A stretch of 64,000 bases of DNA from Alphaproteobacteria bacterium (GCA_964291215.2 OZ219790.1:1024001-1088000); one strand, 5' to 3'; positions 13,679 through 24,473 are shown, counted from the first letter of the stretch. Program-made: numbers and translations. Notes: a model not told the origin generated them from the sequence alone.

Positions 13679-14062
13679 ATGCCGGCGCCCGAAAAACTCT
13701 CCCTGATCATCCAGAGCGGCGATCGCGAGCGAGTTTACTACGCCTTGGTAATGGCCGCGGCAGCGCTGGCGATCGGAAAACCCGTCACGCTGTTCTTCAC
13801 GATGGACGGAACACACGCGCTGACCAGAAATTGGATCGGCGACAGCGAAGAGGCAGAGCGACACGGCGCCGGGATTGCGGACATGGAGGAACTGATGTCT
13901 TCCTGCATCGAACTCAAGGGCCGGTTCATGGTCTGCGAGACCGGCCTGCGAGCTGCCGGACTTCAGTTCGGCGACCTGCGCGAGGACATTCCGGTCGAGC
14001 AGGGAAGCGCGGTCAGCTTCCTTTCCGACGCTTCCAGGCACGGCGTCATGCTGTACATATAG
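13679..14062 (+). CDS. DsrE/DsrF/DrsH-like family protein
   Basis: AAAALAIGKPVTLFFTMDG and GRFMVCETG; RBS GAGGA; 4 nt after moeB. Confidence 0.75.
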   Translation: MPAPEKLSLIIQSGDRERVYYALVMAAAALAIGKPVTLFFTMDGTHALTRNWIGDSEEAERHGAGIADMEELMSSCIELKGRFMVCETGLRAAGLQFGDLREDIPVEQGSAVSFLSDASRHGVMLYI

Positions 14063-14083
14063 GACCGCGTCGGCGGCCCACCC

Positions 14084-15064
14084 TCATCGCGGATCAACGC
14101 GGTTCGGTGGATCGTCATGCGCAAGGAAACCGGTGATGTTGGCGATAACCTTTTCGCCCATCGCCGAGCGGCTTTCGCTGGTAGCGGAGCCAAGATGCGG
14201 TGCAAGGACAACATTGTCGAGCGCAAGCAGGGCCGGCTCCACAGCAGGCTCCCTCTCATAGACGTCGAGGCCTGCGCCGGCGAGTTTCCCGTCGGCAAGA
14301 CAGCGTGCGAGCGCTGCCTCGTCAATGATCTCGCCACGCGCCGTATTGACCACGACGGCATCCCGGGGCAGCAGGTTCAGCCGCCTCTCGTCAAGGAGAT
14401 GACGGGTCTCGGGCGTATAGGGGCAGTTGATCGAGAGAACGTCCGTTTCGGCAAGCATCAGGTCGAGATCCTCCTGCCATGTCGCCTCAAGCGCATGTTC
14501 CACCTCGACCGGCAGGCGTTGCCGGTTGTGATACTGCACGCGCATTCGGAAACCGAGCGCCCGCCGCGCGACAGCCTGCCCGATCCGTCCCATCCCGACG
14601 ATGCCGAGCCGCCTGCCAGTCAGCCTGCGGCCCACCATGAATGTAGGAGACCAGCCCTGCCAGACGCCGCTGCGCACCAGCCGGTCGCCCTCGACGAGAC
14701 GGCGCGGAACTGCCAGCATCAGGCTCAGCGCGATGTCCGCGGTGTCGTCTGTCAACACATCCGGAGTGTTGGTTACGACAAGTCCGCGCACCGTGGCGGC
14801 GGCGAGATCGATGTGGTTTACCCCGACCCCGAAATTTGCCAGCAGCCGGACAGTTTCCGGAAGTCGTGCGATCAACTCGGCGTCGAACCTGTCGGTAACC
14901 GTCGGCACGACAACATCGGCACCGAACGCGGCCACCACGATCTCGCCCGCCGCCATCGGAATATCGTCGGCGTTCAGCCGAACATCAAACATATCCCTCA
15001 TGCGGGATTCGATGCCTTGCGGCAGGGCGCGCGTAACGAGAACGCAGGGACGAGTGGCAATCAT
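14084..15064 (-). CDS. D-2-hydroxyacid (glyoxylate/D-glycerate) dehydrogenase
   Basis: NTPDVLTDDTAD, GIVGMGRIG, NTARG, GLDVYEREP, PHLGSAT. Confidence 0.93.
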   Translation of the reverse strand: MIATRPCVLVTRALPQGIESRMRDMFDVRLNADDIPMAAGEIVVAAFGADVVVPTVTDRFDAELIARLPETVRLLANFGVGVNHIDLAAATVRGLVVTNTPDVLTDDTADIALSLMLAVPRRLVEGDRLVRSGVWQGWSPTFMVGRRLTGRRLGIVGMGRIGQAVARRALGFRMRVQYHNRQRLPVEVEHALEATWQEDLDLMLAETDVLSINCPYTPETRHLLDERRLNLLPRDAVVVNTARGEIIDEAALARCLADGKLAGAGLDVYEREPAVEPALLALDNVVLAPHLGSATSESRSAMGEKVIANITGFLAHDDPPNRVDPR

Positions 15065-15162
15065 CAGACGTCGCAAAGCAGAGAATTGTTAATGGATATC
15101 GACAGCATACCCGGGTGGGGCCACCCGGCAAATCCCGGCACCGGCAAAAGGGAAGCGACCCT

Positions 15163-15356
15163 CACGATGATCCCACGCTAATTCGGAGACGCGAAATCCG
15201 AATGTCTTGGGGGCTCGCGTCATCACAGATCGCCCCCTTGATCGCAATTTTCGTGCCGAGAAGGCCCCATCGAGCCTTGGCGGCACGATTGCAGCGCGAC
15301 GCAAACTGTAAAAATCTCGCCAGTCGTCGCTGGATTAGCAGCGTGGGATCATCGTG
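15163..15356 (+). mobile_element. MITE copy 1 (194 bp, non-coding)
   Basis: Perfect 17-bp TIR CACGATGATCCCACGCT...AGCGTGGGATCATCGTG; 9-bp direct repeat AGCGACCCT at 15154-15162 and 15357-15365; homologous to 22100-22291. Confidence 0.92.
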
Positions 15357-15627
15357 AGCGACCCTGCATCCGTATTGAAACTTCCCGCAACGAGCGCTAC
15401 CCTGTCGGCATCTTGTGGAAGAGTTCCTGCTCCCACAACCGATATTGTTGTCCAGCCTTGAATTTCCGGAGACGCGCCGCCGGTGCCGGCCCGAACATGA
15501 TGTCCAAGACCCATCACCGTCCGGATCGGGCATGCCGTCGAGATTCCCGTGCGGTTGGCCAAAAAACCGGTATCAGCAGACACCTGTGTGCCGGGCTGGT
15601 GATCCGACTGCACATGTCGGACAGTTC

Positions 15628-16128
15628 ATGACGAAACGTTCAATGACGGGCATCGTCGGACGAAGCGCGGTTGCCGCCCTGGCCGCCCTGTTGCCGGCTT
15701 TCGCAGCGGCGGACACGGGACTCCAACTGCCGCGCTTTGCCTCGCTGCGCGCCAACGAAGTCAATTTGAGAGCCGGGCCGGGACAGCAATATCCGATAGA
15801 CTGGATCTTTCGGTACAAGGGTATGCCGGTCAAGATCATTGCCGAATACGATCACTGGCGTCAAGTCCGCGACTGGGAAGGGACTGAGGGTTGGATTCAC
15901 AAGTCCCTGCTCTCGGGACGACGCACGGCGATGGTCGTGGGAAAGGAGCACCCCCTCCGGCGATCTCCGGAAAGCAATTCTGGCGTGGTAGCGCGGATCG
16001 AGGGACGGGTTGTCGGACGGATTCTGGACTGCAAGAGGCACTGGTGCCGGCTGGATATCGGAGACTATCGCGGCTGGATGCAACGCAACCATCTGTGGGG
16101 AGCAGATCCGGCTCCACGGGAAGAATAG
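15628..16128 (+). CDS. secreted tandem bacterial SH3-domain protein
   Basis: Signal-like N-terminus, LPRFASLRANEVNLRAGPG, WRQVRDWEGTEGWIHKSLLSGRRT; start re-called at 15628. Confidence 0.88.
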   Translation: MTKRSMTGIVGRSAVAALAALLPAFAAADTGLQLPRFASLRANEVNLRAGPGQQYPIDWIFRYKGMPVKIIAEYDHWRQVRDWEGTEGWIHKSLLSGRRTAMVVGKEHPLRRSPESNSGVVARIEGRVVGRILDCKRHWCRLDIGDYRGWMQRNHLWGADPAPREE

Positions 16129-16224
16129 GCCGCTGAATCAGACCGGGCCGGGATCCGCCGCCCGCCTACAGGACTGCGCACGGGCGCCACCTGAAGCCGT
16201 TGCGCCATCCGTACGAGGCGCGGA

Positions 16225-17145
16225 TCAGGATCCGCCGGGGCCTGATTCGGACGCAGCGGACGGAGACGGGCCAAGCGTCGCAGTCCCGAACGAGCCGTCG
16301 GTCACCTGTCCACTCCTGTAGAAGACGGGATTCGCGAACGCGAGCCGCCTTGCCATCACGTTTACCGCTTCTTCGCTGCTATCCACAAGCACGGCGTTCC
16401 GGCCGGCGCGGATCGCCGCTTCGCCCGTCGTTCCGCTGCCCGCAAAGAAATCCAGAATCTGCTCATCGGGATTTGAATGAACACGGACGATTCGGTTCAG
16501 GATCGCCAGCGGCTTCTGGGTCGGATACCCGGTTCTTTCCTTGCCGCCGGAGCTGACAATGGTATTCCACCAGGTATCCGTCGGAGTCTTGCCCCTTGCA
16601 GCCTTCTCCGGCCCGACCAGTCCCGGCGCCATGTAGGGGATGCGGTCGATGTCCCCGAATCGGTAGGTGTATTTTTCCGGGTCCTTGGCATACCAGAGAA
16701 TATTGTCATGCTTCGGAGACCAGCGCCGCTTCGATCGAGCTCCGTAGTCATAGGCCCAGATTATTTCGTTGATGAATGACTCGCGGCCAAAAATCTCATC
16801 CAAGAGAATCTTGCAGTAGTGAGCCTCCCGGTAGTCGATATGGAGGAAAAACGAGCCGGCAGGGGAAAGCAGCCGGCGAGCTTCGCGGAACCGGGGTTCG
16901 ACAAATGACATGTAGTCGCCGAAGAAATCGGAGAATGATGACGTGCCCAGTCGAGTCGTCCTGTATCGTTTGCCCTGAAAGCCCAGCCTGTCCCCGTCCT
17001 TGTCCATTACCGTCTTCAACCGTGTGCGGGACTGGAGCTTGCCCGTGTTGAACGGCGGATCGATGTAGATCAGGCTGAAGCGTTCCGCTTCAAACTCGGA
17101 AATGATGTCGAGATTGTTGCCGAGATGAATCTCGAGTCTGTTCAT
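16225..17145 (-). CDS. site-specific DNA amino-methyltransferase (N6-A/N4-C), beta class, orphan
   Basis: Catalytic IYIDPPF precedes YPTQKP and the SAM-binding LDFFAGSGTT; RBS AGGAG before ATG 17145. Confidence 0.92.
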   Translation of the reverse strand: MNRLEIHLGNNLDIISEFEAERFSLIYIDPPFNTGKLQSRTRLKTVMDKDGDRLGFQGKRYRTTRLGTSSFSDFFGDYMSFVEPRFREARRLLSPAGSFFLHIDYREAHYCKILLDEIFGRESFINEIIWAYDYGARSKRRWSPKHDNILWYAKDPEKYTYRFGDIDRIPYMAPGLVGPEKAARGKTPTDTWWNTIVSSGGKERTGYPTQKPLAILNRIVRVHSNPDEQILDFFAGSGTTGEAAIRAGRNAVLVDSSEEAVNVMARRLAFANPVFYRSGQVTDGSFGTATLGPSPSAASESGPGGS

Positions 17146-17233
17146 TTCCGGACTCCTTCGGCCATCGCTCAACCGATGATGAAGTGCGGGATCCAGAGCG
17201 CCCGTTCTTTTTCAGCCCGGCCGGGCGCGCGGT

Positions 17234-17839
17234 CTATCCGTCCGGTACCCGGAAGTCCTCGCTCAGCGCCCGCCGCACATGCTCAGGGACGACGGCCATG
17301 TGACCGTACTGCGGATGTCCGATGGCAACCACCGCCTCGGCGCTGCCGGATCGCATGGCGTCAACCGCCTCGTCGTCGAACGGGAAGTGCACGAAATGAA
17401 CCGAAGACGTCTTTCCGTCAGCGCGGGTGCGATCCATGTCAGCTTCCGCCACACCCCGGATCCTGCTATCGCCTACGGAAATGAACATTGCCTGCTCGAC
17501 GCTACCGAGTTCTCCGAGAATCCGTTTCCGCTGCGCCGGATCCCCGATCTCGAACATCACCGTGGCCACGAGTTCGCGGCCCTGGGGAATCAGCGGGTTA
17601 TAGGCCTCGAGCTCATCCTGGATCTGGGCCTCGCCACCACGCTCAATATAGAGCATCTCGTGGACCTGGTGCCACATGGTCTCATAGTTCTCGAAATGGA
17701 ACGTGGCGTGCGGCCCGACCGCCACCCGCCTGTTCTTTTTTAGCGCGATCAGAGCCTTCCTGCGCGCGCGGCGTTCGGAGGCATACCGTTCCATCGGAAG
17801 GATATCGGCGCGGGTAATCTGTGTCGGAGATGCGTTCAC
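17234..17839 (-). CDS. DUF3501 family protein
   Basis: RRVAVGP..TFHFEN, QVHEMLYIE, ELEAYNPLIP, KTSSVHF; GTG start overlaps the upstream stop (GTGA). Confidence 0.85.
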   Translation of the reverse strand: MNASPTQITRADILPMERYASERRARRKALIALKKNRRVAVGPHATFHFENYETMWHQVHEMLYIERGGEAQIQDELEAYNPLIPQGRELVATVMFEIGDPAQRKRILGELGSVEQAMFISVGDSRIRGVAEADMDRTRADGKTSSVHFVHFPFDDEAVDAMRSGSAEAVVAIGHPQYGHMAVVPEHVRRALSEDFRVPDG

Positions 17840-19182
17840 GTCTGCCTCCTGCAGGCCTGCGCGAGCAGCCGGATCGGATGCGGCACATGCTCCGGTACAT
17901 GTTCCCCGTCGCCTGCCAGACGCTCCATGCCCTGGCGGAGATGATCTCCTGCCAGCGGACATTCGGATACCACCCACCGTCGATCCGCCCGCAGCGCGCG
18001 CCGTGCGGCGGGCCGTCCGATCTTGAGCGCCGTATCGAAATTCTCCCTCATCATGCCCCAGGAGCCCCCATGCCCCGAGCAGCGCTCAACCACCTGCACG
18101 TCGGTGTCGGGAATCAGCCGCAACAGTTCCGCAGCTTTCTGCCCAACATTCTGTGCCCTTGCATGGCAGGCGAGGTGGACCGTCACGCCGCCGTCAAGGG
18201 GCTGCGGCTCGTCGGCCAGGCCTTCCTTGCGGGCAATGTCGACGATGTACTGGCTGATATCCCAGCTCGCTTCGGAGAGGCGCCGCAGGTCGTCATCCTC
18301 AGGGAGCAGGAGCGGCCACTCGAACTTGAGCATAAGCGTGCAGCTCGGAGTGAGTGCAACCACATCATATCCATTGTCTACCCACGGGATGAGGGCTGCC
18401 GCAACCCGCCGCGCGTTCTTTGTCACGGCCTCGATGTCGCCATGCTCGAATTTCGGCATGCCACAACAGGTCGGGTAGACGACTTCGGCCTCGACGCCGT
18501 TGCGGGCCAGAATCTCAAGCGCATCCTCGCCCGTCTCGGGATCGTTGTAGTTGACGAAACAGGTGGCATAGACGACAGCCTTCCGCCCGAATGCCGGCGC
18601 ATCACGGTTGACCGGCACAGGCGCGGCGCGAGCGCGCATCGTCAGCGTCCTGCCGTGAAACTTCGGCACAGCAGCGCGCCGATCGATGCCGGTAGCGGCC
18701 TCGACCACCGGTCGCATCAGCTTGTTCCCGGTATCGGTGGCCCAGTTGGCAAGCGGCGCAACAGGCGCAGCGAGCCTGCCGTTGCGGTCGGTTTCGGCGA
18801 GTTGCTGCCTGACGAAACTGGTCCCACCCTTCTTGCGCTGCACAGCGCGATAACGAAGCATGAGGTGCGGCACATCGAGATTGAACTCGTGCGGCGGCAC
18901 ATAAGGACACTTGGTCATGAAACACATGTCGCACAGCGTGCATGCATCGACCACGCCGCGGAAGTCCTCGGAAGAGACCGTGTCGAGTTCCAGACTCTCC
19001 GATTCGTCGATCAGATCAAAAAGCCGGGGAAAGGAGTCGCAAAGATTGTGGCAGCGCCTGCAGCCGTGACACACATCAAATTGACGGCGCATCTCGGCGT
19101 CCAGCTTCTCCTCGTCGAGAAAATCGGGATCGCGCCACGGAACAGGATGACGCTCCGGCGCTTCAAGACTGCCTTCAGCCAC
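17836..19182 (-). CDS. rubrerythrin-associated Fe-S oxidoreductase (GlpC/heterodisulfide reductase-like)
   Basis: CHGCRRCHNLC and CTLCDMC...CP ferredoxin motifs; CCG domain (TCCGMP, ERCSGHGG). Confidence 0.9.
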   Translation of the reverse strand: MAEGSLEAPERHPVPWRDPDFLDEEKLDAEMRRQFDVCHGCRRCHNLCDSFPRLFDLIDESESLELDTVSSEDFRGVVDACTLCDMCFMTKCPYVPPHEFNLDVPHLMLRYRAVQRKKGGTSFVRQQLAETDRNGRLAAPVAPLANWATDTGNKLMRPVVEAATGIDRRAAVPKFHGRTLTMRARAAPVPVNRDAPAFGRKAVVYATCFVNYNDPETGEDALEILARNGVEAEVVYPTCCGMPKFEHGDIEAVTKNARRVAAALIPWVDNGYDVVALTPSCTLMLKFEWPLLLPEDDDLRRLSEASWDISQYIVDIARKEGLADEPQPLDGGVTVHLACHARAQNVGQKAAELLRLIPDTDVQVVERCSGHGGSWGMMRENFDTALKIGRPAARRALRADRRWVVSECPLAGDHLRQGMERLAGDGEHVPEHVPHPIRLLAQACRRQT

Positions 19183-19228
19183 TGAAATTCCTCGTGTTCC
19201 CGGATCCGGGCCCGGCCTCGCGGACGCC

Positions 19229-19262
19229 CGCCCGGGACGGCCTCACGCCGTCGTCCCGGGCG
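19229..19262. repeat. GC-rich stem-loop between rubrerythrin and the Fe-S oxidoreductase
   Basis: CGCCCGGGACGGC-CTCAC-GCCGTCGTCCCGGGCG, bulged hairpin without a U-tract. Confidence 0.6.
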
Positions 19263-19304
19263 AGTGTCGCACCGCAGATCTGCCCGGCGCGGTCCCGGAC
19301 GCGA

Positions 19305-19724
19305 TCAGTCAAGCTCATTCAGAGCCTTCTGGAAGCGGCCCGCATGCGACCGCTCGGCCTTTGCCAGTGTCTCGAACCAGTCGGCGATCTCGTCGAAATT
19401 CTCGTCACGGGCTTCCTTCGCCATGCTGGGGTACATGTCGGTGTATTCGTGCGTTTCCCCCGCTACCGCCGCCTTCAGATTGTCCGAGGTAGTCCCGATC
19501 GGCTCGCCCGTTGCCGGGTCGCCCACCTCCTCGAGATACTCGAGATGGCCGTGCGCATGCCCGGTCTCGCCTTCGGCGGTCGAGCGGAAGACGGCGGCAA
19601 CATCGTTGTAACCCTCGACATCCGCTTTCTGGGCAAAGTAGAGATAGCGGCGGTTTGCTTGGGATTCCCCAGCAAACGCATCCTTCAGGTTCTGTTCCGT
19701 CTTGGTTCCGGCGAGTGATGCCAT
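19305..19724 (-). CDS. rbr: rubrerythrin, short form without rubredoxin domain
   Basis: [43 protein letters not shown] diiron motifs; RBS AAGGAGG. Confidence 0.95.
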
Positions 19725-19804
19725 GTTGGCCTCCTTGTTGTTAGTGTGATGCGGAACCGCAGCCACAAGAGCGCTGTCAGCGATGGGAGCGGTCGGTAGC
19801 CCGC

Positions 19805-19833
19805 AGTATAGGCTTCACGCCGGTTTCCGTCAA
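19805..19833 (-). promoter_or_regulatory. sigma70 promoter of the rbr operon
   Basis: TTGACG-17-TATACT on the minus strand. Confidence 0.7.
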
Positions 19834-19836
19834 TAG

Positions 19837-19853
19837 TTTAGAACTGTTCCAGA
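19837..19853. promoter_or_regulatory. Irr-binding iron control element (ICE)-like box
   Basis: TTTAGAA-CTG-TTCCAGA versus consensus TTTAGAA-N3-TTCTAAA; 3 bp upstream of the rbr -35 box; irr gene adjacent. Confidence 0.75.
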
Positions 19854-19908
19854 TTATTTTCTCTGCGTCGGGGCAACGCAAACGCCAGCGTCTGCCGGCG
19901 CGGCGGCC

Positions 19909-20349
19909 TCAGTGCGACCTGTCGGGCCGGGCAACCCGCACGATGACATCGACCCTTTGCATCTCCGTGCCCGGCGGCACCTGCGGAAGCTCGGCGAGGC
20001 TCACTTCATGGGCAGGAATGTCCTCGAGCCTGCGCGTGTCCTCGTGAAAGAAATGATGATGGTAATCCGTGTTGGTGTCAAAATAGGAGCGGCCGGCTTC
20101 GACCACGACCGCCTGCAGCAATCCCGATTCGGTGAACTGATTCAGAGTGTTGTAGATCGTGGCAAGCGAGATGTCAATGCCAACCTTCTGCGCCTCGCCG
20201 TGCAGCTCTTCGGCAGTGACATGACGGTCGCATCCGTCAAGCAACAGCCGGGCAAGCGCGATGCGCTGCTGCGTCGGACGCAGACCAGCCTTCCTCAGGG
20301 TCGCGGTCGCCCTGAAGACCCCCTCAGCATCTGGGAACGGCGTCACCAT
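19909..20349 (-). CDS. irr: iron response regulator Irr (Fur family)
   Basis: GLRPTQQRIALARLL, RHVTAEELH, SLATIYNTLNQF, YFDTN...HHHFF; start re-called at 20349. Confidence 0.9.
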   Translation of the reverse strand: MVTPFPDAEGVFRATATLRKAGLRPTQQRIALARLLLDGCDRHVTAEELHGEAQKVGIDISLATIYNTLNQFTESGLLQAVVVEAGRSYFDTNTDYHHHFFHEDTRRLEDIPAHEVSLAELPQVPPGTEMQRVDVIVRVARPDRSH

Positions 20350-20596
20350 GATCTGACGATAATGCGAATTGGAATGATTTTCAAATGCTGCAGGCTCCGG
20401 ATGCTGCCGACGCTCTGGACGGATCGCCGGTGATGGTGTTCGACAGAGCGGAATTCGATGCTCTCTGGCAATCCGCCACCCCGCACGCCTGTCGACAACA
20501 GGGCGCACTGCAAACAGACGCCAATGGCGCCAATATCTGCGTGAAGGAGAGTTCGCGTCCGCGCCGCAAGCCACCGGCACGAGAGTCGCAGGAAAT

Positions 20597-21994
20597 TCAG
20601 TCGCCGGTATGCAACCGCTCAATCAGCTGCCTGACCGTGGGCACAAAACCGTTGGAATAAAACGGATCTTCACGGAACCGGAAAGCGTTGTGTCCGGCAA
20701 ACATCAACTGATGTTCGATATCGCCGTCATGGGCGATGTCCTGAAGCGTCTTCTGGATGCAGTAGGATCTGGGATCGGGGCGGCGCCCTGTCGTGCCGCG
20801 CTCATCCTGCGCCCAGTTCGAAAAGCCGCACTGCGACAGGCACCCCATGCAGTTGGACTGGTCGGCGCGAATCTCGCGCCCCTTCTCGGGCGACACAAAG
20901 ACAACCGTCGAATCGGGAGTTCTCATCCCGTCCGTAAACCCCTCCGCGACCCAGCACAGCGCCCTCTCCCGGTCCGCCGCAGTCACGAAGATCTTGCGCC
21001 CGCGGGCACCGGTCAGGAGTTCCGCGTTCAGTTCTCCCACCGGCTGTTCGGCATAGGCGATCTGGCGCACTGACCTTTCCCGCAGTTCCTCGAGGAAGGC
21101 GTTGCGCACCGCTGACGAATAGAATCCGGTCGGGCTGTAGCGGTTGAGGAAGACATCGCCTTGCTTGAGATCAAGAAGGCGCTGCTTCCATTGCGAGGAG
21201 ATCGGGCTTTCCTGGGTTAGCAGCGGCCGCGTTCCGAACTGGAACGCCGTCGGCCCGATATCGGGATCATCGATCCAGTCTTCCCACTCCCGCAGATACC
21301 ATACGCCACCCGCCATGAAGATCGGAATTTCGCCAAGCGACATCTCCTTCATCATCCTGCGAAGCTCAACCACCCGCGGCCGCGGATCCTCGGGCTCTTC
21401 CGGATTCTCGCTGTTGGACAGGCCGTTATGGCCGCCAGCGCGCCACGGATCCTCGTAGACGACGCCGCCAAGCCAGTCCGAAAACCGGTGGTAGGCGCGT
21501 TTCCACAACGCCCGAAACGCCCGTGCCGACGACACAATCGGATAATAGTGCACACCGTACTGGGCCGCGATCTGTGCTATCCGGTAGGGCATCCCGGCGC
21601 CGCAGGTCACCCCGTCGATGAGGCCGCGCGCCCCCGCGAGAACGCCGTGCAGGACGCGTTCGGCGCCCGCCATCTCCCACAGGATGTTCATGTGTATGCG
21701 TCCCCGCCCGCCCGCTACCTCGTGGGCGATACGAGCCTGGGCGATGCCGCCGCGGATGGCGTAGGCCAGCAGCTCTTCATGACGGTCGCGCCGAGTTCGC
21801 CCCTGATAGATCACGGGAATGAGGCAGCCGTTCTGGTCGTAGGCGTCGGCATTGACGCCGGAAAAGGTGCCGATACCACCGGTTGCCGCCCAAGCGCCGG
21901 AACTCTCGCCGTTCGACACAGCGATGCCCTTCCCGCCCTCAACAAGCGGGCTGACTTCCTTTCCAGAAATAAAGAGAGGCTTGAGCTGTTTCAG
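20597..21994 (-). CDS. nitronate monooxygenase-family flavin oxidoreductase
   Basis: PLVEGGKG, GVTCGAGMPY, YEDPWRAGGHNGLS, FQFGTRPL, CMGCLSQC; start uncertain (CTG at 21994 behind GGAGA, or GTG at 22102). Confidence 0.85.
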   Translation of the reverse strand: MKQLKPLFISGKEVSPLVEGGKGIAVSNGESSGAWAATGGIGTFSGVNADAYDQNGCLIPVIYQGRTRRDRHEELLAYAIRGGIAQARIAHEVAGGRGRIHMNILWEMAGAERVLHGVLAGARGLIDGVTCGAGMPYRIAQIAAQYGVHYYPIVSSARAFRALWKRAYHRFSDWLGGVVYEDPWRAGGHNGLSNSENPEEPEDPRPRVVELRRMMKEMSLGEIPIFMAGGVWYLREWEDWIDDPDIGPTAFQFGTRPLLTQESPISSQWKQRLLDLKQGDVFLNRYSPTGFYSSAVRNAFLEELRERSVRQIAYAEQPVGELNAELLTGARGRKIFVTAADRERALCWVAEGFTDGMRTPDSTVVFVSPEKGREIRADQSNCMGCLSQCGFSNWAQDERGTTGRRPDPRSYCIQKTLQDIAHDGDIEHQLMFAGHNAFRFREDPFYSNGFVPTVRQLIERLHTGD

Positions 21995-22099
21995 GGCCAG
22001 TCTCCAGATTGCGGCCGATGCGCGCCCGGAATGACCGCACCCGGCCGCCGCAAACCTACCACATGAAGTGCTGCCGCAACAGCAGGACCAGACGGTAAC

Positions 22100-22291
22100 C
22101 ACGACGATCCCATGCTGCTAATCCAGCGGCGACCGGCGAGATTTTTCGGTCTGCGTCGCGCTGCAATCGTGCCGCCAAGGCTCAATGAGACCTTTTCGGC
22201 GCGAAAAATTGCGATCAAGGGGCGATCTGTGATGACGCGAGCCCCAACGCACTCGGATTTCGCGTCTCGGAATCAGCATGGGATCACCGTG
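22100..22291 (-). mobile_element. MITE copy 2 (192 bp), inverted relative to copy 1
   Basis: TIR CACGACGATCCCATGCTG...CAGCATGGGATCACCGTG (16/18 match); 9-bp direct repeat GACGGTAAC at 22091-22099 and 22292-22300. Confidence 0.92.
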
Positions 22292-22328
22292 GACGGTAAC
22301 CCAGCGCCGACCCCAGCCTCTGGCGGAA

Positions 22329-24473
22329 TCAGGATGCTGCCTGGACCTCGGCCGTGCCCGCCTTCCTGCCTCCGATCTCGGCGCCGGTCTTCTGGTCCAC
22401 GACCCGCATCGAAAGCCGCACCTTGCCGCGGTCGTCAATCGCGAGAACCTTGACCTTGACCTCATCGCCCTCGTTCACAACGTCAGTGACCTTGCCGACA
22501 CGACGGTTCTCGAGTTCCGAGATGTGAACGAGGCCGTCACGGTTACCCATGAAATTGACGAAGGCCCCGAAATCCACCACCTTGACGACCTTGCCGGAAT
22601 AGATCACGCCTACCTCCGGCTCGGCGACGATTGACCGTATCCACTCCACGGCAGCCTCGCTGGCGGTGCCGTCCGCCGAGGCAACCTTCACCGTGCCGTC
22701 ATCCTCGATATCGATCTTGGCGCCCGTCTGTTCGCAGATCTCGCGGATGACCTTGCCGCCGGTGCCAATGACGTCGCGGATCTTGTCCGTTGGTATGTGG
22801 AGGGTTGTGATGCGGGGTGCGAACTCGCTGAGGTCGCCACGCGACTTCGCGATGGCGCGGGCCATCTCGCCAAGGATATGCATGCGGCCCTGATTTGCCT
22901 GTTCCAGCGCGGTGGCCATGATTTCCTCAGTGATGCCGGTGATCTTGATGTCCATCTGGAGCGCCGTTACGCCACGCTCGGTACCGGCAACCTTGAAATC
23001 CATGTCTCCCAGGTGATCCTCGTCGCCGAGAATGTCGGAAAGCACCGCGAAACGGTCATTTTCCTTGATCAGGCCCATGGCGATTCCGGCGCAGGCCCGC
23101 CGCAGCGGCACGCCAGCATCCATCAGCGACAACGACGAACCGCAGACGGTCGCCATCGAAGACGACCCGTTCGACTCCGTGATCTCGGAGACCACCCGAA
23201 TCGTATAGGGAAAATCATCCTTCTGCGGCAGCAGCGGCCGGATCGCGCGCCATGCGAGTTTGCCATGGCCGATCTCGCGGCGGCCGGGGGCGCGCAGAAA
23301 GCTGGCTTCGCCAACCGAAAAGGGTGGAAAGTTGTAGTGCAGCAGGAAGTGTTCGCGATACTCGCCGTCGAGCGCATCGATAATCTGCTCGTCCTGGCCG
23401 GTGCCCAGCGTGGCAGTCACGATGGCCTGGGTCTCGCCGCGGGTGAACAGGGCCGACCCGTGGGCACGGGGCAGGATGCCAACTTCGGTCTCGATCGGGC
23501 GCACCTTATCGAGCGCCCGGTTGTCGATCCTCTGGCCAGTGTCGAGAATGGCGTTGCGAACGATTTCCTTCTCCACCGTCTTCACCATGCCGGCAGCACG
23601 TTCGAGGACTGCCGGTTCATCGTCGGCGAAGGCGGTGAGCGCAGCTGCCTTGGCCGCGATCACCTTCTCGACACGGCTTTGCTTGACGGTTTCCCGATAG
23701 GCCTCGCGCAGCGGTCCCTCCGCGGCCTCGCGCACGCGGGACAGGAGTTCGGCCTCATCGGCAGGCGCATTACTGAGTTCCCACGGATCCTTCGCACATT
23801 CCTCGGCAAGACCGATAATCATGTCGATCACCGGCTGGAATTCGCGATGGGCAAACATCACGGCGCCGAGCATTACCTCCTCGGACAGTTCCCGAGCTTC
23901 CGATTCGACCATGTTGACGGCATCAGCGGTGCCGGCCACCACCATGTCGAGTTGGCTCCGCTCGAGCTGGTCGGGCAGCGGGTTGAGGACATAGGCACCG
24001 TCGACATAGCCGACGCGGGCGCCGCCGATCGGCCCAAGGAACGGAAGTCCCGAGATCGTCAGCGCCGCGGAAGCGCCGACCAGTGATACAACATCAGGAT
24101 CGTTCTCGAAGTCATGCGCAAGCACGGTACAGATGACCTGGGTCTCGTTGCGGAATCCGTCGGCAAAGAGCGGCCGTATCGGGCGGTCGATCAGGCGCGA
24201 GGTCAGCGTCTCCTTCTCCGACGGACGCCCTTCCCGCTTGAAGAAGCCGCCCGGGATCCGGCCTGCCGCGAACGCCTTTTCCTGGTAGTTGACCGTGAGC
24301 GGAAAAAAATCGATTCCGGACCGCGGGCTCTTCTGCGCCACGGCCGTGCACAACACCGTGGTGCCGCCGTAACTCACCATCACGGCGCCATCAGCCTGAC
24401 GCGCGATCTTACCCGTCTCCATGGTAAGCGTGCACCCGCCCCATTCGATTTCCTTACGATGTACCGAAAACAT
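22329..24473 (-). CDS. pnp: polyribonucleotide nucleotidyltransferase
   Basis: [35 protein letters not shown]; KH and S1 domains. Confidence 0.99.

Follow-up and report, generated by a model that had tools for sequence, protein, structure and literature searches.

A miniature inverted-repeat element of about 110 copies in an alphaproteobacterial genome and its likely ISAs1-family partner

A 64,000-nucleotide stretch of the genome of an Alphaproteobacteria bacterium (GCA_964291215.2, OZ219790.1:1024001-1088000; hereafter the window) carries two copies of a miniature inverted-repeat transposable element (MITE), which an original prediction had picked out by eye from the sequence alone. The window corresponds to positions C1:1024001-1088000 of a 6.15-Mb genome with 64% G+C in two contigs, C1 and C2 (G000), and in this genome the MITE is a family of about 110 copies. 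We consider it highly probable that the window elements, as members of this 192-194-bp family, were mobilised in trans by the transposase of a 2.1-kb insertion sequence (IS) of the ISAs1 family, which has nearly the same ends as the MITE and the same 8-10-bp target-site duplications. What began as a repeat noticed by eye can now be described as an IS-MITE pair with its ends, duplication spectrum, empty sites, census, partner family and a second host. Under the mechanism we favour, an ISAs1-type DDE transposase would bind the 17-nt ends shared by both elements (CACGRYGATCCCAYGCT), cut the target at positions staggered by 8-10 bp and place the element there; repair of the stagger would give rise to the target duplication.

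Insertion and abundance of the MITE

Copy 1 (15163..15356, plus strand) is 194 bp long and belongs to subfamily A, the ..GCTAAT type. Its terminal inverted repeats (TIRs), the left one at 15163..15179 on the plus strand and the right one at 15340..15356 on the minus strand, are 17 nt each (CACGATGATCCCACGCT / AGCGTGGGATCATCGTG) and perfectly complementary, and the element is bracketed by a 9-bp target-site duplication, AGCGACCCT, read directly at 15154..15162 on the left and repeated at 15357..15365 on the right. Copy 2 (22100..22291, minus strand) is 192 bp long, belongs to subfamily B, the ..GCTGAT type, and is inverted with respect to copy 1; its end arms are 19 nt long and 89% complementary, and its 9-bp duplication, GACGGTAAC on the plus strand, stands at 22091..22099 and again at 22292..22300. 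The coordinates, opposite orientation, TIRs and 9-bp direct repeats are those of the original prediction. An identity judged by eye at 85-90% came to 88.7% over 195 columns in an end-to-end alignment (87% mean column identity when the flanks were included), and both copies are intergenic, as had been proposed. The nearest relatives elsewhere in the genome are 94-95% identical to copy 1 and 98% identical to copy 2, and a search of the 64-kb window returned these two MITE copies only, with no other copy and no related IS.

Empty sites were found for both copies. In the congener G001 (same genus; PNPase 97% identical), both window flanks match at 91-94% and the element is missing at both. Site 1 in G001 reads ...CACCGACAA GCGAAA AGCGGCTCT GGATCCG... 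and has the length of the G000 sequence minus the element and one 9-mer; the 9-mer AGCGGCTCT occurs there once only and shares 7 of 9 positions with the G000 target. At site 2, the element and both 9-mers give way to one diverged stretch. A contig from a sponge metagenome (run X4; ~91% identical to the window) also skips 15148-15356 and 22096-22303, and at both junctions its intervening letters are the same as those of G001. This contig may come from the same organism as G001, and so we do not count it as independent support. The target duplications and the empty sites together show that the window elements arrived by insertion, and the separate transposition events claimed for the two copies now have, in G001 and the X4 contig, empty orthologous sites with a single target to match. 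In three further runs (X1-X3, one organism code), contigs lead at either site from unique flanking sequence into the element, and because these contigs end in copies, MITE copies are likely assembly break points. No RNA data set was listed among such runs.

When copy 1 was compared with G000 by BLASTN, 124 matches were obtained at E<=1e-5, of which 106 were longer than 150 nt and 87 had both terminal repeats recognisable, bearing out the expectation of many copies genome-wide and placing the resemblance of the two window copies well outside chance. The 87 two-ended copies amount to 16.7 kb, or 0.27% of G000, and the 17-nt end motif occurs 335 times in the genome at <=3 mismatches. Two subfamilies could be distinguished, one of 193 bp (..GCTAAT) that includes copy 1 and one of 192 bp (..GCTGAT) that includes copy 2. 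Compared pairwise, the 87 copies are 81-99% identical (median 89.5%); identity to the nearest neighbour has a median of 97.3%, and no two copies are identical.

Of the two-ended copies, 43/87 are flanked by exact duplications, the length being 9 bp in 26, 10 bp in 13 and 8 bp in 4. Another 17 copies have an inexact duplication (9 or 10 bp, 1-2 mismatches), and a control in which left and right flanks were randomly re-paired gave ~1/87. The 9-bp duplication first reported is thus the modal length but not a fixed one, the range being 8-10 bp. The duplicated 9-mers are 68% G+C and show no strong motif. As judged by a crude proxy based on open reading frames (ORFs) and third-position G+C, insertion sites fell in coding-like ORFs in 2/87 cases under strict settings compared with 23% of random sites, in 10/87 compared with 46% under further settings, and in 29/87 compared with 65% under loose settings, an intergenic bias that purifying selection would be expected to give. 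The family combines small size, high copy number, TIRs, variable target duplications, empty sites and lack of coding capacity, the features by which MITEs are recognised. For annotation of G000, it accounts for ~110 intergenic repeats and, with its partner IS, for more than 30 transposase pseudogenes.

MITE copies are themselves sites of nested insertion. One spot near the MITE end, directly after ..CCCAYGCTAAT (MITE position 15-20), holds nested insertions of at least four different foreign elements, at G000 C1:727193-728434, C2:816113-817362, C2:2152955 and C1:2119488-2120553 and in loci L037 and L038. One of these elements is a frameshifted, IS630-like sequence of ~1.05 kb with three copies; others have ends GTGCCCGCGCGGAAATGACC.. 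or GGTTGTGTACCCAAAT.., and the AT-containing CTAAT seems to be an insertion hot spot in this 64% G+C genome. Several other copies are split near the middle, at MITE positions ~85-107, with ~6-12 nt of MITE sequence doubled on either side (C1:2567022-2568945, C1:897322-900404, C2:1514688-1519300 and C1:1585035-1585573); in one case the insert is the ISAs1-type IS itself, as a 1,728-bp copy, and several half-MITE matches that lack a partner also end in this zone.

The ISAs1-type IS and its transposase

A further 43 intervals in G000, longer ones of 0.36-5 kb, are likewise enclosed by a pair of end motifs. By BLAST, 33 of these form a single IS family with elements of 1.1-4.6 kb, and the other 10 are MITEs or unrelated intervals with nested foreign insertions. 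The IS ends (CAAGGTGATCCCATGCT... and CACGGCGATCCCACGCT...) share 15-16 of 17 positions with the MITE ends, so that the transposase gene bounded by the same TIR, for which a search had been advised, was found, with ends that are nearly the same. Exact duplications flank 18 members of the family, 12/33 with 10 bp and 6/33 with 9 bp. The reading frames of the 33 copies are broken, being frameshifted, deleted or interrupted; one broken fragment gave a weak DDE_Tnp_1 match only, and a search of three IS loci against Rfam gave no match.

One and the same 1.35-kb insert splits the transposase gene in about 11 IS copies, of 2.9-3.3 kb, several of which nonetheless have distinct exact duplications of their own. 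This supports mobilisation of defective IS derivatives in trans, or the 1.35-kb insert could also have been re-inserted site-specifically. The 1.35-kb repeat (e.g., G000 C1:2429504-2430868, L032:540-1904) has 98 BLAST matches, ~45 of them near full length, lies nearly always in or beside ISAs1-type IS copies, and occupies the same position throughout the 2.9-3.3-kb class. Four ORF pieces of one copy had no Pfam match and the repeat had no Rfam match; G001 and G002 gave no match to it, and G041, the second MITE-bearing genome described below, gave two short fragments only. It may be a parasite specific to one site in the IS, or else a passenger.

The transposase could be classified from an IS copy in G041, which has an uninterrupted ORF of 604 aa. 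The encoded protein matched the NCBIfam model NF033564, 'ISAs1 family transposase', with an E value of 6.8e-40 and 137.2 bits (cut-off 70), and in Pfam it matched DruA/DUF4338 (residues 33-174, 70 bits), DDE_Tnp_1_assoc and DDE_Tnp_1. A catalytic triad of D336, D391 and E516, numbered as in the first sequence, was invariant in 10/10 aligned proteins, and annotated relatives on plasmids bear the name 'ISAs1 family transposase'. The enzyme had at first been supposed to be of the IS4 type. The IS4 family does have its DDE chemistry and the Pfam DDE_Tnp_1 superfamily in common with the partner, but no IS4-family model was matched at E<=0.01 in the NCBIfam scan, which returned the ISAs1 equivalog and a sub-threshold RecX match only, and the partner is assigned to the ISAs1 family instead.

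The N-terminal 235 aa of the G041 transposase (L070:2838-3542, minus strand) are predicted to adopt a GNAT fold (pLDDT 85, pTM 0.82). Comparison of the predicted domain with PDB structures returned 331 chains at E<=0.001, the top-ranked of which was phage Mu Mom (PDB 8bv8; E 4e-7, TM 0.52/0.59), and a PDB sequence search with the transposase found no relative. The predicted fold agrees with a published account in which DUF4338 is called GNAT-like (PMC10853773). The domain resembles Druantia DruA (PF14236) in sequence and, as modelled, phage Mu Mom in fold, both of them GNAT-fold proteins; unlike Druantia DruA, it is fused to a transposase and lies outside a defence operon. Catalytic competence of the DruA-type domain, or a role for it in transposition, is putative. 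The architecture DruA + DDE_Tnp_1_assoc + DDE_Tnp_1 is common, with 399 proteins at E<=1e-10 among 7,997 scored candidates; of the best 120 of these 399, most have the same Pfam domains, and one has a name, 'predicted transposase YbfD/YdcC'. In a search of the literature, we found nothing linking DruA with ISAs1, no discussion of a DruA-type GNAT fusion and no ISAs1-linked MITE.

ISAs1-family elements are usually 1.2-1.5 kb in size, and their direct repeats range from 8 to 10 bp. The partner IS is like them in passing NF033564, in having DDE_Tnp_1_assoc and DDE_Tnp_1, in the ~17-22-nt length of its inverted repeats, and in its duplications of 8-10 bp. It is unlike them in that those repeats, of the form CA.GG, start CACGG or CAAGG and not CAGGG, in its length of 2.06-2.13 kb, ~0.6 kb above the usual size, and in its ~600-aa protein, and both are longer because an extra N-terminal domain of ~230 aa, the DruA/DUF4338 domain with its predicted GNAT fold, precedes the ISAs1 core. 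A published description, which the partner fits in the lengths of both kinds of repeat, gives the family inverted repeats of 14-22 bp starting CAGGG and direct repeats of 10 bp (PMC11946415).

Among MITEs, one that can be compared is MITEPye1 of Paracoccus yeei, which is linked to IS1182 and present in 1-3 copies per chromosome according to its description (PMC11578231). The two are alike in being small, non-coding and mostly intergenic, with TIRs that match a resident IS, direct repeats and a long stem-loop. The present MITE differs in having an ISAs1 partner, ~110 copies per genome and an 8-10-bp duplication, in sharing its ends alone with the IS, and in occurring as the same MITE in a distantly related genome. 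An ISAs1-linked MITE is not described in the relevant parts of PMC3281130, PMC11578231 and PMC5756416, and no description of this MITE was found in Rfam, PLSDB plasmids or the literature searched.

A second gene of the DruA-ISAs1 type is present in G000 at C2:460832-462490 (L079:1501-3159). It has a 670-aa open frame with no stops, is 50% identical to the G041 enzyme and is apparently single copy; inverted repeats like the MITE ends were searched for around it and none were found.

A second host and probable horizontal transfer

The MITE was found in 0/40 relatives of G000 (4 from its genus, 20 from its family and 16 from its order), and in the same 40 no transposase exceeded 55% identity to the G041 enzyme. 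A scan for a 22-nt stretch of the MITE core, covering one genome per species for 185,579 species, returned 26 matches, all in one other record, OZ220465.1, a metagenome-assembled genome of an Alphaproteobacteria bacterium (G041). This genome holds at least 40 scored MITE copies (79 candidates), which are up to 97% identical to copy 2 and have their own 9-10-bp duplications. A 2.13-kb relative of the IS is also present, with at least 24 matches spanning the whole query among the 40 matches listed, so that MITE and IS co-occur in both MITE-bearing genomes. JGI metagenome contigs, searched with two exact patterns, gave 0 matches, and no MITE match was found in PLSDB plasmids. All of these searches, that with the 22-nt stretch included, demand exact words or high identity, and diverged relatives would escape them.

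The two hosts are only distantly related. PNPase identity to G000 is 65% for G041, compared with 78-97% for congeners of G000 and 76% for a genome from a different family of its order, and the genes flanking the G041 elements have no DNA-level match to G000. Because the MITE is 87-97% identical and the transposase 85% identical across this distance, and because the pair is absent from the nearest congener, the G000 lineage likely acquired the pair horizontally after its split from that congener. In G041, the system looks to have been recently active, since a sample of its MITE copies chosen by exact 22-mer is nearly uniform (median identity 99%) and the transposase genes are intact, and to have decayed in G000.

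Seven of the G041 copies (L043, L045, L049, L056, L057, L058 and L064) have identical flanks, cggggcggaccg on the left and gggcggaccgcg on the right, and therefore represent a MITE insertion inside a larger repeat that has itself been multiplied.

The element is an ordinary kind of bacterial genome parasite and leaves the general concept of MITEs unchanged; the less ordinary aspects are only its sharing across lineages and the GNAT/DruA-type domain on its transposase. To our knowledge, ISAs1-family elements have received little mechanistic study, and the pair offers a minimal substrate for the biochemistry of ISAs1-type transposition, with a second host in which the system looks recently active. 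A bolder proposal, which we regard as improbable in its entirety, is that the pair jumped between distant bacteria (MITE identity of up to 97% against 65% for PNPase) and also belongs to a large undescribed branch of ISAs1 in which the DruA-type, Mom-like GNAT domain acts in transposition, by end recognition or by DNA or protein modification. If this were true, Druantia's DruA would share ancestry with a transposon module, and the MITE would be a ready-made minimal substrate for probing the DruA-type domain.

Activity in G000 and competing explanations

A search of G000 with the G041 transposase returned 217 matches, one of which is full-length without stops (C2:356532-358244, 85% identical). 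The IS around it, C2:~356440-358496, has a 579-aa ORF, begins and finishes with CACGACAATCTCACGCC... and ...GCATGAGATCATCTTG, and is flanked by a 9-bp duplication, CCCCGCCCG, that is perfect; in an alignment with nine relatives, the 579-aa protein keeps the three catalytic acidic residues.

Several observations weigh against the proposed mobilisation of the MITE by the ISAs1-type IS, and some of them concern this full-length copy. Its ends have diverged (GATCTCA for GATCCCA) and differ from those of the MITE at 4 of 17 positions, and its protein lacks four residues after DGKR, has W changed to R in a near-invariant HW motif, carries two small deletions and is altered at the C-terminus. MITE duplications are most often 9 bp long and IS duplications 10 bp, 27/87 MITE copies have no recognisable duplication, and the inverted repeats of the partner start CACGG or CAAGG, whereas those of the ISAs1 family start CAGGG. 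Insertion polymorphism at the two window sites was looked for in runs X1-X3 and none was found, all of them carrying both copies. The link between MITE and IS is suggested by three features, namely shared ends, shared duplication length and co-occurrence, all of them read from sequence. Finally, the IS does not account for the MITE interior. With a window copy as query, no similarity between that interior and the IS was seen (best E 0.29); as the two elements have nothing but their ends in common, we rejected the MITE as an internal-deletion derivative of the IS.

We nevertheless favour mobilisation by the ISAs1-type transposase, and the family is probably a fossil, or nearly so, in G000, because the 33 IS copies are broken, the full-length copy is blemished and no MITE pair is identical. 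It is possible instead, though we think it unlikely, that the family is still transposing in G000, driven by the full-length IS at C2:~356440-358496 or through cross-reaction with the C2:460832-462490 paralogue. Such continued activity would fit the uninterrupted 579-aa frame of that IS, its perfect duplication and its three catalytic residues, as well as the existence of some MITE pairs that are 99% identical and the nearest-neighbour median of 97.3%. However, the loss of near-invariant residues, the altered C-terminus and the diverged ends argue against this IS as a current source of transposase, no detectable TIR matching the MITE accompanies the paralogue, G000 has no identical MITE pair to set against the 99% sample median of G041, and both window copies are present in each of the three runs X1-X3.

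Far less credible is the idea that some other transposase (e.g., of the IS4 or IS5 type) moves the MITE and that its likeness to the ISAs1-type ends is coincidental. A 9-bp duplication is also made by IS4 and IS903-type elements, which counts in favour of this explanation, as does a MITE interior unrelated to the IS. Nonetheless, all 33 of the large TIR-bounded elements that cluster belong to one ISAs1-type family, MITE and IS have duplication lengths in common in addition to the 15-16 of 17 matching end positions, and the two occur together in both MITE-bearing genomes and in 0/40 relatives.

The sequences were also examined for RNA, coding and regulatory roles. Each strand folds far better than its shuffles (z of -8.2 and -8.35, one per strand), as the inverted ends would lead any such element to do. 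The consensus structure from 100 distinct copies consists of the pairing of the two ends and a few invariant hairpins, and with only 3 cells of two-sided change in its 27 pairs it indicates no selected RNA; selection at the RNA level was rejected for want of covariation. None of 4227 Rfam covariance models matched window positions 14000-23500 at E<=1, which answers the call for an Rfam check. The longest stop-free stretch is 64-65 aa and one frame is open in 54/87 copies; in the frame that is most often open, the second codon position is the most variable (0.087 compared with 0.046 and 0.066). A coding capacity was accordingly rejected, codon-position diversity showing no coding constraint, in keeping with the initial description of the element as non-coding. 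No promoter- or terminator-like sites were found inside the two window copies. The least probable account of all, that the family is a host-selected structured element (REP-like sequence, small RNA, terminator or regulator site) spread by function rather than by transposition, could draw on the strong folding and the depletion in coding-like ORFs, but the former is expected from inverted ends and the latter from purifying selection, and target duplications with clean empty sites, the lack of an Rfam match, covariation or internal promoter- and terminator-like sites, and absence from all 4 congeners searched all stand against it.

Between the two MITE copies lies a gene for an N6_N4_Mtase DNA methylase (window 16225-17172, minus strand; Pfam E 1.8e-45), which adjoins DUF3501, CCG-domain and Fur-family regulator genes and has no apparent link to the MITE. 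Copy 1 is situated between divergent neighbours, a 2-hydroxyacid dehydrogenase gene (14084-15076, minus strand) and an SH3-domain gene (15415-16128, plus strand), and copy 2, which is upstream of an NMO-like gene, follows the stop codon of PNPase (22329) at a distance of 29 nt.

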